From a virus (Duplodnaviria; Caudoviricetes), in the IMG/VR virus record IMGVR_UViG_3300017912_002988, positions 1-40,161 of that record: a stretch of 40,161 nt of DNA. One strand, given 5' to 3'. How positions within the stretch are numbered: position 1 is the stretch's first letter; each line of letters begins with the position of its first letter. Shown here one piece after another: positions 1,351-31,913 of this stretch. A program made the position numbers and the translations under genes. The notes below the pieces were generated by a model that was not told the origin of the DNA, did no database searches, and saw only the letters and a list, made by a program, of their open reading frames with translations.

Positions 1351-1366
1351 TGTATCACATATTACA
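1351..1366. promoter_or_regulatory. NtcA binding site (TGTA-N8-TACA)
   Basis: TGTATCACATATTACA matches the cyanobacterial NtcA consensus GTA-N8-TAC with flanking T/A; lies 7 nt upstream of a -35 box. Confidence 0.65.
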
Positions 1367-1373
1367 TAACTAC

Positions 1374-1402
1374 TTGCCTATATACTCTATAGGGTCTATA
1401 AT
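1374..1402 (+). promoter_or_regulatory. sigma70-type promoter
   Basis: TTGCCT (1374-1379), 17 bp spacer, TATAAT (1397-1402); predicted TSS ~1409-1410 coincides with the start of the riboswitch-like motif. Confidence 0.75.
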
Positions 1403-1419
1403 AGACCTACGTTCATCCA

Positions 1420-1620
1420 ATGATAAGCATACTGCTGGCATTAACCCTTGCCCATCATGATGACACCAACCCCTACGGGTGGCATATGTCTTGTGAAAGG
1501 TTCCTACAGAGAAGAGTTGAAATCCTTATGGATGACAACTTGGATCGACGATCTAAGTATAACCTTATTGGTTATCTTAAATCAAAGGTTGAAGGTAAAT
1601 GCGATGGTATGTTAATCTAG
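1420..1620 (+). CDS. Small hypothetical protein (66 aa), hydrophobic N-terminus, two Cys; nested in aptamer 1
   Basis: ORF track; resembles 1656..1829. Confidence 0.7.
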   Translation: MISILLALTLAHHDDTNPYGWHMSCERFLQRRVEILMDDNLDRRSKYNLIGYLKSKVEGKCDGMLI

Positions 1621-1655
1621 GACGCAAGTAAGTCGCGGAACGGAGCGTTCATCCT

Positions 1656-1829
1656 ATGATTGAGTTAGCACTATTGGCGAGTCTTAATCGGGGTCCTCAA
1701 ATGACCTGTTTACAGGTCAGAGAAGTTGCAGAGACCGTAATGGAATCCAACATGAGTGATCGCGATAAAGAAAAACTTCTATCAAAATTGTTTGGTAGAT
1801 TCATGACGCTAAAGTGTCTCAAAAACTAG
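1656..1829 (+). CDS. Small hypothetical protein (57 aa), paralog of 1420..1620; nested in aptamer 2
   Basis: Manual translation MIELALLASLNRGPQMTCLQVREVAETVMESNMSDRDKEKLLSKLFGRFMTLKCLKN; below the ORF-track cutoff. Confidence 0.7.
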   Translation: MIELALLASLNRGPQMTCLQVREVAETVMESNMSDRDKEKLLSKLFGRFMTLKCLKN

Positions 1830-1910
1830 GACGCAAACGACTGAAGGAACGGGAAAACGGATCCACCGAAAGGTGAGAAGGTTAACTTTCCATTCATTCA
1901 GGTACGACAA

Positions 1911-2075
1911 ATGAACACACTTACAATCATCAAAAAGCAAATTGAGAAAGCAGCACGTCTGCACGATGCACAAATCATGCACACTACATATCGTGGTGTC
2001 AAGTATGAGTGCAAGCAGGAAGGCGAAGAAGTGCATGGCACTTTTTGCTATCGCGGCCGCAACTACAGTAAGTGA
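1911..2075 (+). CDS. DUF4278-like YRG-motif peptide (54 aa)
   Basis: Manual translation MNTLTIIKKQIEKAARLHDAQIMHTTYRGVKYECKQEGEEVHGTFCYRGRNYSK; two YRG motifs, typical of peptides downstream of cyanobacterial glutamine riboswitches. Confidence 0.75.
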   Translation: MNTLTIIKKQIEKAARLHDAQIMHTTYRGVKYECKQEGEEVHGTFCYRGRNYSK

Positions 2076-2079
2076 TGTC

Positions 2080-2172
2080 ATGGAAGCACTACAAATCGTA
2101 GGGTCAATTACCCTTGGTTGTGTTGCGGCGATGACATTACTTTACGGAGAGATTCTTCTCCTCCAAAAATAA
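2080..2172 (+). CDS. 30-aa hydrophobic (single transmembrane) peptide
   Basis: MEALQIVGSITLGCVAAMTLLYGEILLLQK; starts 4 nt after the previous stop and ends just before a terminator. Confidence 0.5.
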   Translation: MEALQIVGSITLGCVAAMTLLYGEILLLQK

Positions 2173-2174
2173 AC

Positions 2175-2201
2175 GAGAGGGGTTGTCACCCCTCTTTTTT
2201 T
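2175..2201 (+). terminator. Rho-independent terminator
   Basis: AGAGGGGT-TGTC-ACCCCTCT followed by a T run. Confidence 0.85.
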
Positions 2202-2235
2202 GTGGTAGCATCTAAATATTATCTTTGGAGGGTGT

Positions 2236-20156: not shown

Positions 20157-22039
20157 TGACTAAACCAATTAACATTAGAGCAGTAGCATCAGGTATACGG
20201 GGTCCTGTCGAGGATACCGAAAAAGTAATCGTTAAATTTAGCAAGTTTATACGAAGAAATGATACGAAGCTGAGAAACTTCAAGTTTCCTAGTCGAAACA
20301 GAATGAAATATCTCAAGACGCTGAACTTAACTGTCTTGGGAAAACACGAAAGGGGTGGATTTGCTTTAGGATTACCAAATCCATTCAGAACTGTTACTGA
20401 AGCAGCATTATCTCGAATACTTACGCCTCTGGCCGTCGGAACAATTTTTACCACTGCTGGAGCATGGTTACCTGCCTTAGTACCAGAACTAATTAATGAG
20501 CAGGAAAGAAAAACTGCAAAAACTCCTGGAAGTAGAGAAGAAAAACTTAGAGCACTATATGAACAGAAAAAGAATCTAAAATGGTGGGATTGGATTACTG
20601 GAGTTGCACAAGAAGTAGACGAACAAATCTATTTCTTAGAAACAGGACAAACTAAATCATATGGTAAAAACTTGACTCCAAGGACACCAAGTGACTTTGA
20701 TGCTGGTGAGTGGACAGAAAGAAAGCCCCAAGGTAAATTAGACCTTCAGAACTTTGCTTCATATGTAGCTACTTTTGACATGTTGGCTTCAAGGGGGGTT
20801 TTCACTAAGGGATTATCTATCAAACGTCCAGCTGGCCCAGCTGCTCGAGGCGCTGTTCCATCACAAGTTATTCCTACAAGTGGGATTTTAAATGCTGCAC
20901 AATATGGAGGGGGTGGATTGCATCCGTTCCCAGGAGGAAGCCGTATTAGTTCTGACGTTGGGATGAGAAATGGAAAGTATCATTGGGGAACTGATATGGC
21001 CGAGACAATGAAAAATGGAAAGTGGAGGCCAAATCCTAGGACTCCAATCGTTGCGATGCATGATGGCGTGGTTTTGGAAAAGCCATTTAACAATGAGAGA
21101 GATGCATATCTAGCTGGAGTGATGATTAATCATCCCGATTTAAAAGTAGATGCGAGATATTTGCATATGAATCCAAGTGTTCAACCTGGAGAAACTGTAA
21201 AACGAGGACAAATTATTGGAACTCTCGTTCCTTTGGGTGGAGCAAAAACACAATATAAAGATACTCACTTACATTTAGAACTATACAGACCAGGAACTTC
21301 AACTGTCTTAAAGAAAACAGAAGCTAGAAAATTTCTTGGTGGATTGCATAAGGTTCCTTTTGCTGATGTAAATAATGCTACAAAACTCAAACCAAGAAAT
21401 CAAATCCCAGATCCCAGTGAAGCACCAAAAGCTACTCCAAGTACACAAGTAATACCAACACAAAAAAATGCAAAAGAATCCAAAAAGAAGTTAAGAGAGT
21501 TAGCAACACAGATTGAAGAATTGAAATCTTCTAGAGACATGAGTAGAGTTGATGAGAAGGTAAGAATACCAGAAGTTGGAACATATGTGTTTGGTACGAA
21601 CTGGCTTAAAATGCCAGAAGACAAATATTTTAATCCAAATGGAGAACAAATTAGCAGAGAAGAATTTGAAAAAAGATTCGTAACATATGCAGAAAAATTA
21701 GAACAACAGTCAACTGCCTCTTCAACTCCAACTCCAACTCCAACTCCTACCCTAAGTCCAGCTTCACCCAATACCCCAAGTCCATCTATAGTTACCGATC
21801 CATCGACAGCAAATCCTACTAAACGCGAAAGACCTTCCGTAGAAACCTATCCATCATATAATAGACCCAACAGGGTAAATAATACCATCATAACAAATAA
21901 TCAATTGCCAGATAAAAAAGGATCGGTCCCACAATATAGTTCTAGACCATCTAGTTCTGGTGGGGGCATGGTTTATATTGGTTCGGATTTATCTTCAATG
22001 GCTTCTTCCATTTTACTCACACAATTATCAGGATCATGA
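20156..22039 (+). CDS. Virion-associated protein with M23 peptidase domain
   Basis: HWGTD (HxxxD), YLHM...VQPGETVKRGQIIG, HLHLE (HxH). Confidence 0.8.
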   Translation: MTKPINIRAVASGIRGPVEDTEKVIVKFSKFIRRNDTKLRNFKFPSRNRMKYLKTLNLTVLGKHERGGFALGLPNPFRTVTEAALSRILTPLAVGTIFTTAGAWLPALVPELINEQERKTAKTPGSREEKLRALYEQKKNLKWWDWITGVAQEVDEQIYFLETGQTKSYGKNLTPRTPSDFDAGEWTERKPQGKLDLQNFASYVATFDMLASRGVFTKGLSIKRPAGPAARGAVPSQVIPTSGILNAAQYGGGGLHPFPGGSRISSDVGMRNGKYHWGTDMAETMKNGKWRPNPRTPIVAMHDGVVLEKPFNNERDAYLAGVMINHPDLKVDARYLHMNPSVQPGETVKRGQIIGTLVPLGGAKTQYKDTHLHLELYRPGTSTVLKKTEARKFLGGLHKVPFADVNNATKLKPRNQIPDPSEAPKATPSTQVIPTQKNAKESKKKLRELATQIEELKSSRDMSRVDEKVRIPEVGTYVFGTNWLKMPEDKYFNPNGEQISREEFEKRFVTYAEKLEQQSTASSTPTPTPTPTLSPASPNTPSPSIVTDPSTANPTKRERPSVETYPSYNRPNRVNNTIITNNQLPDKKGSVPQYSSRPSSSGGGMVYIGSDLSSMASSILLTQLSGS

Positions 22040-31119: not shown

Positions 31120-31192
31120 GCTTCCTTAGCAATCTGGTGAATGCTCCGAACTCATAATTCGGTTAAGGAGAGTTCGATCCCCTCAGGAAGCA
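31120..31192 (+). tRNA. tRNA with CAT anticodon (elongator Met or Ile2)
   Basis: GCTTCCT/AGGAAGC acceptor stem, CCGAA-CTCATAA-TTCGG anticodon arm, TTCGATC T loop. Confidence 0.85.
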
Positions 31193-31197
31193 CTTAT

Positions 31198-31283
31198 GCG
31201 AGTATGGCGGAATCGGTAGACGCACCAGACTTAAAATCTGTTGACTATATAAGGTCGTGGGAGTTCAAGTCTCCCTACTCGCA
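31198..31283 (+). tRNA. tRNA-Leu(TAA)
   Basis: GCGAGTA/TACTCGC acceptor stem, CAGA-CTTAAAA-TCTG arm, long variable arm. Confidence 0.92.
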
Positions 31284-31287
31284 CCTT

Positions 31288-31359
31288 GCCCTTGTAGCTC
31301 AGTGGTAGAGCAGCGCTTTTGTAAAGCGAAGGTCATCGGTTCAAATCCGTTCGAGGGCT
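31288..31359 (+). tRNA. tRNA-Thr(TGT)
   Basis: GCCCTTG/CGAGGGC acceptor stem, CGCT-TTTGTAA-AGCG arm, GGTTCAAATCC. Confidence 0.92.
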
Positions 31360-31360
31360 T

Positions 31361-31640
31361 TCACTCTTTTGAGTGAATAGGTTGCACCATCGACATTTCG
31401 GACAGGAGTTCGATTCTCCTCGCTTCCACTCATGGGGGCGCAATGGTTTCGACGGGGTATACGGAGTGTGACTGAAACCTGCTTGGATAAGCAACCAATA
31501 GATGCAAAAACATCTGATGTCGCTGCGAACAATATCGTAGCATTCTCCCGCACTCGCGAACTCGCGACTGCCTGAATGGGAGATCGGGGTTAGACTAGCC
31601 TTGTTACCCAAGTAGTCCGTGGGGGTGTAATGCCCCCTTA
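31361..31640 (+). ncRNA. ssrA: Circularly permuted (two-piece) tmRNA, tag ANNIVAFSRTRELATA*
   Basis: T arm AGGAG-TTCGATT-CTCCT plus acceptor 3' strand CGCTTCC-A (31404-31428) precede the 5' strand GGGGGCG-CAATGGTTTCGAC (from 31434); G3:U70 pair; tag frame 31525-31575; outer boundaries approximate. Confidence 0.9.
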
Positions 31641-31652
31641 TTCAGGAGTATT

Positions 31653-31850
31653 ATGAAGATTAATCTATGGTATTCTAAGAGTATGTTGCAATGGCGATGG
31701 ACTCTTTGCGAAGAATTTAAAAACGGTGTTACATACAGAGAACAACACTCTGGTCAACAACCGATGCTTCGTGATGCCATGGATGATGTTGCGAACACTG
31801 TTGAGTATATTCTTGAAGCTAAAGAAAAGAGGGAAAACAAGGGGAATTAG
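31653..31850 (+). CDS. Hypothetical protein (65 aa); stop codon lies inside tRNA-Ala
   Basis: AGGAG RBS; ORF track. Confidence 0.7.
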   Translation: MKINLWYSKSMLQWRWTLCEEFKNGVTYREQHSGQQPMLRDAMDDVANTVEYILEAKEKRENKGN

Positions 31851-31913
31851 CTCAATTGGTAGAGCACCTGCTTTGCAAGCAGGGGGTTAGGGGTTCGAGT
31901 CCCCTATTCTCCA
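31841..31913 (+). tRNA. tRNA-Ala(TGC)
   Basis: GGGGAAT/ATTCTCC with G3:U70, CCTGC-TTTGCAA-GCAGG arm, GGTTCGAGTCC. Confidence 0.95.

Follow-up and report, generated by a model that had tools for sequence, protein, structure and literature searches.

Covariation among related phages indicates that the locus described here contains an outer glutamine-I aptamer, which closes over ~440 nt around a second, circularly permuted core and shares its P3 with it. Because one unit supplies one strand and the other unit the partner strand of P1, of P3 and of the long-range pair, the outer aptamer spans two complete protein-coding ORFs (Table 1). The window, by which we mean the whole 40,161-nt stretch of DNA analysed, is a virus record of a T4-like cyanophage with tRNAs and a two-piece cyanobacterial tmRNA, and the locus is 87% identical to Synechococcus phage Sf-FS3. 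The tmRNA lies together with three tRNAs at 31120-31913. Counterparts of the three ORFs of the window (ORF1, ORF2 and the gene at 1911) are gp196-gp198 of phage Syn9.

Table 1. Features of the locus, with positions in the window
Feature	Position	Strand	Description	Basis
NtcA-type box	1351..1366	+	TGTA-N8-TACA; centre ~51 nt upstream of the aptamer's first C	sequence
Sigma-70-type promoter	1374..1402	+	TTGCCT-17-TATAAT; inferred start ~1408-1409	
Inverted repeat around the -10 box	1393..1407	.	arms vary between phages	
Outer P1, 5' strand	1410..1414	+	C1, G2; partner 1847-1851	covariation
P2a	1416..1622	+	TCC 1416-1418 with GGA 1620-1622; the ORF1 5' and 3' ends pair and lengthen the stem	folding and covariation
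ORF1	1420..1620	+	66 aa (ATG 1420, TAG 1618-1620); PHROG 6471, Syn9 gp196 homolog; hydrophobic N-terminus, two-Cys helical hairpin	
Outer-core junction	1623..1635	+	CGC (G22, C23), E-loop strand AAGUA, P3 5' strand AGUCG (1631-1635)	sequence, Rfam alignment of L029
Inner, circularly permuted P1	1638..1650	+	GAACG 1638-1642, loop GAG (G60' = 1643), CGUUC 1646-1650	12 P1-variant records
P2b	1652..1831	+	TCCTA 1652-1656 with TAGGA 1827-1831, extended through ORF2	folding and covariation
ORF2	1656..1829	+	57 aa (ATG 1656, TAG 1827-1829); distantly paralogous to ORF1, with which it shares the two-Cys family; PHROG 504 in most relatives at this slot	
Inner core and 3' strands	1832..1852	+	CGC, AAA, P3 3' strand CGACU (1838-1842), E-loop strand GAA, outer P1 3' strand (1847-1851), G 1852	
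Predicted ligand-free hairpin	1841..1901	+	CUGAA 1841-1845 with UUCAG 1897-1901, overlapping SD-like AGGU 1900-1903	
YRG-repeat, DUF4278/IF17-like gene	1911..2075	+	54 aa; PHROG 545; likely switched output	
Fourth operon gene	2080..2172	+	30-aa hydrophobic ORF; ends in YGEILLL-like motif	
Intrinsic-terminator-like hairpin	2175..2204	+	hairpin with T tail	sequence

Topology and class of the paired aptamer units

A sequence-only reading of the window had described two copies of a glutamine-riboswitch-like motif, each enclosing one ORF, and these positions are borne out: CGTTC-A-TCC is present at 1410-1418 and again at 1646-1654, the 3' motif halves of units 1 and 2 occupy 1620-1643 and 1829-1852, and both ORFs lie where they had been placed. 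One detail needed mending: the final P1 strand is 1847-1851, with the G of the long-range pair at 1852. The G of the stop codon opens the 3' P2 strand (GGA) in unit 1 as proposed, and unit 2 pairs its whole TAG.

Relatives were collected by motif scans (at least 120 loci each, from 2 of 64 database parts) and by protein-first scans, and we estimate from the motif scan that 4,500 viral stretches carry the 3' motif. From 342 sequences, 171 distinct complete tandems were recovered; as a specificity control, the parser found no tandem among 120 chance genome matches. Classified by the loops of unit 1 and unit 2, 85 tandems are filled/filled, 51 empty/filled, 17 empty/empty and 8 filled/empty, and 10 have an intermediate loop, with filled unit 1 overrepresented because 80 loci were drawn by an ORF1 query. 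The P2 loop of these phages is either a short hairpin or a gene of 50-68 codons. A junction scan over 1/64 of the genome contigs gave chance matches only and has no bearing on bacteria. The junction pattern also matched in 5 of 401 genomes of the family of a Cyanobium MAG, where control patterns matched more often; one of these five (L705) is a true copy in phage-like DNA, and in the other four the core was absent from the matched text.

For the topology we scored 179 distinct tandems, namely the 171 and 8 records from a variant scan, leaving out 5 rows in which the loosened parser had mis-set the P1 5' strand. At P1 position 5, 12 records fit nested pairing only, none fit independent units only and 167 fit both, and at the 23:60 pair the corresponding numbers are 9, 0 and 165, with 5 fitting neither; the P1 and long-range variant records are mutually related (8 of the 9 long-range variants share a downstream sequence) and stand for fewer independent events than records. 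The P1 variants read CGUUC / CAACG / CGUUG / GAACG in 10 records and CGUUU / CAACG / CGUUG / AAACG in 2. The 23:60 pair is C-G in 165 of 179 tandems, and the nine nested-only records swap the outer pair to G-C, with G after P2a and C after the last P1 strand. P3 likewise forms between the units, as AGUCG with CGACU in 125 records and in compensatory AGUCA/UGACU and ...ACA/UG... forms. The E-loop is divided between the units, with unit 1 supplying the AAGUA half and unit 2 the GAA half, and in the window the E-loop and P3 three-way junction of the outer core is present (AAGUA 1626-30, GAA 1843-45, P3 1631-35/1838-42). A search for an outer-P1 CAACG variant returned none in the 120 loci parsed. 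The inner core has AAA and CG in place of an E-loop, and we do not file it as a glutamine-I member; its own long-range pair, which must be reached from a 3-nt loop, showed no covariation in the 179 tandems.

These records contradict the two side-by-side aptamers of the sequence-only reading, a topology that the 2010 alignment of empty units also uses and that we regard as very improbable. Independent tandem units would each need a P1, a long-range pair and a P3 of their own, which is not what was found: such pairing is broken by all 12 informative P1 records and by the 9 long-range-pair records, and window-type units have no P3 of their own. Constrained folds of 1408-1915 gave -145.2 kcal/mol for the nested and -138.1 for the independent arrangement, which is thus 7 kcal/mol less stable, and the unconstrained fold gave -152.6. 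Independent closure gains some credit from the 167 of 179 records that are uninformative at P1, from single units that score against RF01739 and from unit 1 itself, whose own P1 closes both when the unit is folded alone and in the unconstrained fold of 1408-1915. This closure may be a co-transcriptional intermediate, and the independent topology may survive only as such.

The proposed glutamine-riboswitch type is supported: relatives with empty loops pass the RF01739 cut-off, and the ligand-contact bases are kept. The glutamine contacts named in the available text of PMC6698751 are C1, G2, G22, C58, G59 and the 23:60 pair, and all of these are kept in both cores; C1:G59, G2:C58 and G22 correspond to 1410/1851, 1411/1850 and G1624 in the outer core and to 1646/1642, 1647/1641 and G1833 in the inner core. 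On the native locus, Rfam gave nothing at the cut-off and, up to E 10, only a chance snoRNA match and a 9-nt RF01704 fragment (best RF01704 E in the window 5.4), and natural empty alleles were used as a stand-in for the ORF-deleted sequence. The RF01739 cut-off was reached by 8 of 20 chosen loci (7 tandems and 1 single aptamer) and that of RF01704 by 1 of 20, and the doubly filled loci L016 and L045 had no Rfam match. The empty allele L029, whose core equals that of the window bar one linker base, scored 43.6 bits against the RF01739 cut-off of 35, and cmscan aligned the 5' half of its unit 1 with the 3' half of its unit 2, that is, in the nested register. Of the two classes that had been named for the motif, glutamine-I (glnA) is the closer one and Downstream-peptide was dropped: glutamine-II (RF01704), a single-unit P1 pseudoknot without an E-loop junction, does not fit the between-unit P1 swap and the E-loop.

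Genes inside the P2 loops

When the two units are folded, a lengthened P2 encloses the ORF in both (z = -3.46 and -3.53; 0 of 200 shuffles as stable), and the P2 base pairs covary across inserts of 140-220 nt. Beyond the two pairs demanded by the parser, P2a pair 3 is intact in all 92 distinct filled inserts (48 C-G, 43 U-A, 1 U-G) and P2b pair 4 in all 141, with four pair types. The 5' and 3' ends of one insert pair better with each other than ends taken from different loci in 91 of 92 cases for P2a and in 113 of 141 for P2b. P2 closing over whole coding ORFs, as first proposed from the window alone, is therefore supported for P2a and P2b by covariation across the gene. A permuted-only reading, in which the unit 1 3' P2 strand pairs with the unit 2 5' strand, was ruled out (2.5 versus 5.4-5.8 contiguous pairs).

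The proposed locking of the ORF boundaries to the stem also held up in the relatives. Of 238 filled units, 230 have their ATG at an offset of 3-5 nt within the P2 5' strand, and the stop is found at 0, +11, +15 or +18 in 224 of 238, with 14 elsewhere: 82 stops lie at the P2 3' strand, 10 in the unit 1 E-loop strand (+11, tail GRK) and 132 in the unit 2 core (+15/+18, tails DAND/DAKAD). Both ORFs of the window terminate at the stem. Start and stop regions base-pair with each other in many alleles.

A single ORF takes up at least 85% of the insert in 232 of 233 inserts, and pN/pS values of 0.24 (185 pairs) and 0.41 (43 pairs) indicate that the nested ORFs are under purifying selection. Their products belong to PHROGs 6471, 504 and 13397; exactly two Cys are present in 224 of 225, and 224 join one family at E < 1e-3, a linkage to which common tails may contribute. 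AlphaFold predicts for a nested product a hydrophobic N-terminal helix followed by a helical hairpin (pLDDT 85), and searches of Pfam, PDB (Foldseek) and named Atlas entries gave no match. Such a product may be a disulfide-bonded protein that is exported or anchored in the membrane.

Homologous ORFs without the flanking motif halves had been named as evidence that would speak against the nesting. This applies in part: such aptamer-free copies exist among the distant homologs, although every close homolog whose flanking sequence is on the contig proved to be nested. Among 80 ORF1 homolog loci, pattern matching places the 5' half in all 80 and the 3' half in 75. The five exceptions are two loci cut off by a contig edge and three with a longer frame, and in the two of these three that were inspected the 3' half is intact. 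The junction precedes the ATG in 14 of 15 ORF2 loci, and the remaining one is a deletion allele. In L215, a window-type ORF2 is internally deleted with the P2 base kept (94 nt), and this allele may represent a stage in the emptying of a filled loop. Aptamer-free homologs were found in two podoviruses and in one host-family genome, and a further one is a phage gene that stands alone. Among the best 150 distant matches, 85 are without read-through tails, and two distant-homolog scans with query P0243 found no locus.

In the T7-like cyanopodoviruses (P-GSP1, L217:1216-1353, and L218:1200-1360), the unannotated aptamer-free ORF1 homolog lies between hli and psbA, and its frame runs upstream over hli as a hydrophobic, signal-peptide-like stretch. 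The host-family genome (2.8 Mb; 1 of 301 genomes searched) carries two aptamer-free ORF1-family copies (L707:1459-1758 and L708, G232; PHROG 6471, E 5.5e-21). The free-standing PHROG 504 gene (L709:501-662) lacks an aptamer, and a promoter-like sequence immediately precedes its ATG.

Endonuclease genes were found at several places in and around these loci. A second nested double aptamer follows the first in L209:1030-1660 (also in L048; its start is seen in L202 and L210), and one of its P2 loops carries a 182-aa endonuclease VII/HNH-like gene (PHROG 1035, E 1.5e-18), which reads into the core and is preceded by a TATAAATA late-promoter-like motif. By inspection its between-unit P3 has a different sequence, GAGCAUA/UAUGCUC, which is not the MFE structure. 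In L184:490-1062, the linker that joins the units has taken up a homing-endonuclease-like gene of 190 aa (PHROG 314, E 1.8e-7), which lengthens the inner P1 loop to ~590 nt. In the window, an HNH endonuclease gene (941-1348) lies directly 5' of the promoter, and S-TIM5 likewise has one there.

The operon and its possible nitrogen switch

Upstream of the aptamer, GTA-N8-TAC is present in 123 of 159 distinct upstream regions; among control stretches it occurs in 4 of 155, and shuffling gave a mean of 6. A GTA/TAC spacer of 8 occurs in 107 regions versus 2, 3, 0 and 6 for spacers of 6, 7, 9 and 10. Most boxes lie 45-57 nt upstream, and 20 overlap the -10 region. The window box equals the NtcA consensus as given in the accessible part of PMC3037559, which describes NtcA sites generally in cyanophage genomes. 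An NtcA-type box at a fixed distance from the promoter is what marks NtcA-regulated promoters, and the locus has this arrangement at the sequence level. A second TGTA-N8-TACA box lies at 21367-21382 of the window. A -35/-10-like pair was found in 137 of 159 relatives. Inverted-repeat arms of at least 5 were present in 131 of 159, versus 15 of 159 in the control region. The arms of this repeat around the -10 box (1393-1407) covary between phages and could form a cruciform or a read-through hairpin.

A YRG-motif gene had been expected downstream of the aptamers, and a YRG peptide indeed lies 3' of the tandem in 150 of 152 loci with enough sequence. In the window, the gene at 1911 is DUF4278-like (Pfam PF14105: E 1e-4, 23.1 bits, below the cut-off of 25.3). 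Among 157 relatives with an SD call, 145 are predicted to pair the E-loop strand close to that SD; 9 further relatives gave no SD call. TTCA accompanies CTGAA as SD-blocking partner in 54 of 113 cases and CTAAA in 0 of 35, and the ligand-free hairpin of the window covers only two SD bases. Glutamine-I and -II leaders are described as ON switches for IF17 and IF17-like genes in the available text of PMC6212724. An ORF of 22-40 aa, the counterpart of the fourth gene of the window, comes next in 69 of 154 loci; in the window this ORF had no Pfam or PHROG match. Promoter (1374-1402) and terminator (2175 on) enclose a four-gene operon. RNA-library contigs of relatives cover ~1395-2224 in pieces, and we gave them no weight as contigs cannot show starts, strand or level.

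The NtcA-type box, the sigma-70 promoter, the SD-blocking hairpin, the aptamer and the DUF4278-like gene together likely constitute a nitrogen-responsive operon. At low glutamine, strand 1841-1856 would pair with 1887-1901 and cover the SD of the gene at 1911, while the cores would be open and both nested starts accessible to ribosomes, the one at 1420 behind an 11-nt leader and the one at 1656 with GGAG in the linker. Formation of the nested fold at high glutamine would free the SD of the 1911 gene and lock the P2 bases. Glutamine would in this way probably turn the DUF4278-like gene on and at the same time clamp the two nested start codons, which amounts to reciprocal control. P2 would be unwound by ribosomes translating the nested ORFs, and in most relatives the frame of the second ORF continues into the binding core, so that translation would oppose ligand binding and host nitrogen sensing would likely compete with nested-gene translation on one mRNA. 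The NtcA-type box would add transcriptional nitrogen control. We infer glutamine binding, ON control, repression of the nested genes and interference by ribosomes from sequence. The main weakness of reciprocal control is the long P2 stems predicted in all states: they are present in every predicted fold, with or without the cores, and nested-gene translation may therefore depend little on ligand. Counting against it are also the common empty loops, the family members without an aptamer and the unrelated endonuclease gene in a P2 loop.

Several of these points would be expected if the same nested glutamine switch controlled the DUF4278-like gene only and the P2 loops were merely permissive sites where small genes can park and profit from a strong promoter under nitrogen control, which we consider less likely than reciprocal control. 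The long pairing would then have evolved solely to keep the aptamer folding, and nested translation would be largely independent of the ligand. Every fill combination occurs, 24 of 131 pairs with at least 90% identical downstream peptide differ in fill class, and the free-standing homologs, the endonuclease cargo and the P2 stems in all folds agree with such parking. It does not account well for start codons located in the P2 base, for stops confined to a few fixed registers that mostly lie within the core, for the pairing of start and stop regions in many alleles or for loops occupied almost solely by one protein family. It is improbable that the fold is right and the phage RNA has a different ligand or serves as a binding site for a protein or RNase. 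The inner core without E-loop and a C23-G60 pair that is the reverse of the Rfam consensus G-C could be read in this way, but every ligand-contact base is kept, C-G is the form in the crystallised glutamine-II aptamer as far as described in the accessible part of PMC6698751, and nitrogen is what both the NtcA-type box and the DUF4278-like output suggest. The RNA-structure signatures of the locus, namely covariation across 170-440 nt, Rfam matches and the SD-blocking hairpin, leave hardly any room for a DNA-level repeat or recombination cassette without RNA function, even though conserved repeats could anchor gene exchange and one cargo subfamily is found in either slot.

Going beyond reciprocal control, and quite tentatively, the locus might be a polycistronic riboswitch that builds genes of its mRNA into the structure of an aptamer with two sites and cooperative folding. 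A single glutamine signal would shut two nested genes and open a third, and ribosomes entering the core would veto the switch. Such an AND gate (glutamine high AND nested translation low) could let most T4-like cyanophages meter host nitrogen and translation capacity.

Relation to known RNAs and meaning for cyanophages

According to the available text of PMC6212724, the closest known system, glutamine-I (RF01739; gifB/IF17 leader of Synechocystis), shares with the phage RNA P1 CGUUC/GAACG, P2, the E-loop, P3, G22 and the 23:60 pair, as well as a DUF4278-type gene downstream, a predicted ON switch by release of an SD-blocking helix and an NtcA-type box. The phage locus differs in that its P2 loops hold whole genes, that it has two cores, one of them nested and permuted, that it spans ~440 nt and that it is invisible to the Rfam model. 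With glutamine-II (Downstream-peptide, RF01704) it has in common the binding pocket, the C-G long-range pair and short YRG peptides downstream; unlike the single-unit pseudoknot described in the accessible part of PMC6698751, it has an E-loop three-way junction and a swapped P1. Tandem glnA RNAs and phage glutamine riboswitches are already known from the accessible parts of PMC2864571, PMC9481103, PMC9964418 and PMC9004378, including 157 glnA doublets termed pseudo-cooperative in PMC9481103. The tandem glnA alignment of 2010 (PMC2864571), in the portion available, lists empty phage-type units as separate RNAs with poor or no P3, whereas the phage units swap P1 strands and share one P3 by covariation; a term search of this alignment file returned no ATG-filled rows, which gaps could hide.

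Our literature search, with incomplete coverage of the relevant papers, returned no description of nested glutamine aptamers or of genes in P2. Coding sequence that loops out of a functional RNA fold or competes with it is found in the loop ORFs of group I and II introns, the tag ORF of tmRNA and leader-peptide attenuators. In contrast to these, the host RNA of the phage genes is a metabolite aptamer that lacks any sign of splicing, and the encoded proteins are conserved and folded.

Riboswitch aptamers are usually treated and searched for as compact non-coding leaders, whereas the phage aptamer appears to close over ~440 nt and two real genes. Its inner unit looks like a naturally circularly permuted core, the locus was missed by Rfam, and the known phage-type tandem glnA RNAs can be reinterpreted as one interlocked fold. 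Since the second-slot protein matches 311 phage records, all of them named Synechococcus, Prochlorococcus or cyanophage, a common nitrogen-sensing module of marine cyanophages would so far have gone unrecognised under the label 'hypothetical proteins'. Whether phages sense host nitrogen becomes directly testable in cultured phages (Syn9 gp196-198, S-TIM5, P-HM1), and our findings suggest that other riboswitches may be overlooked for the same reason.
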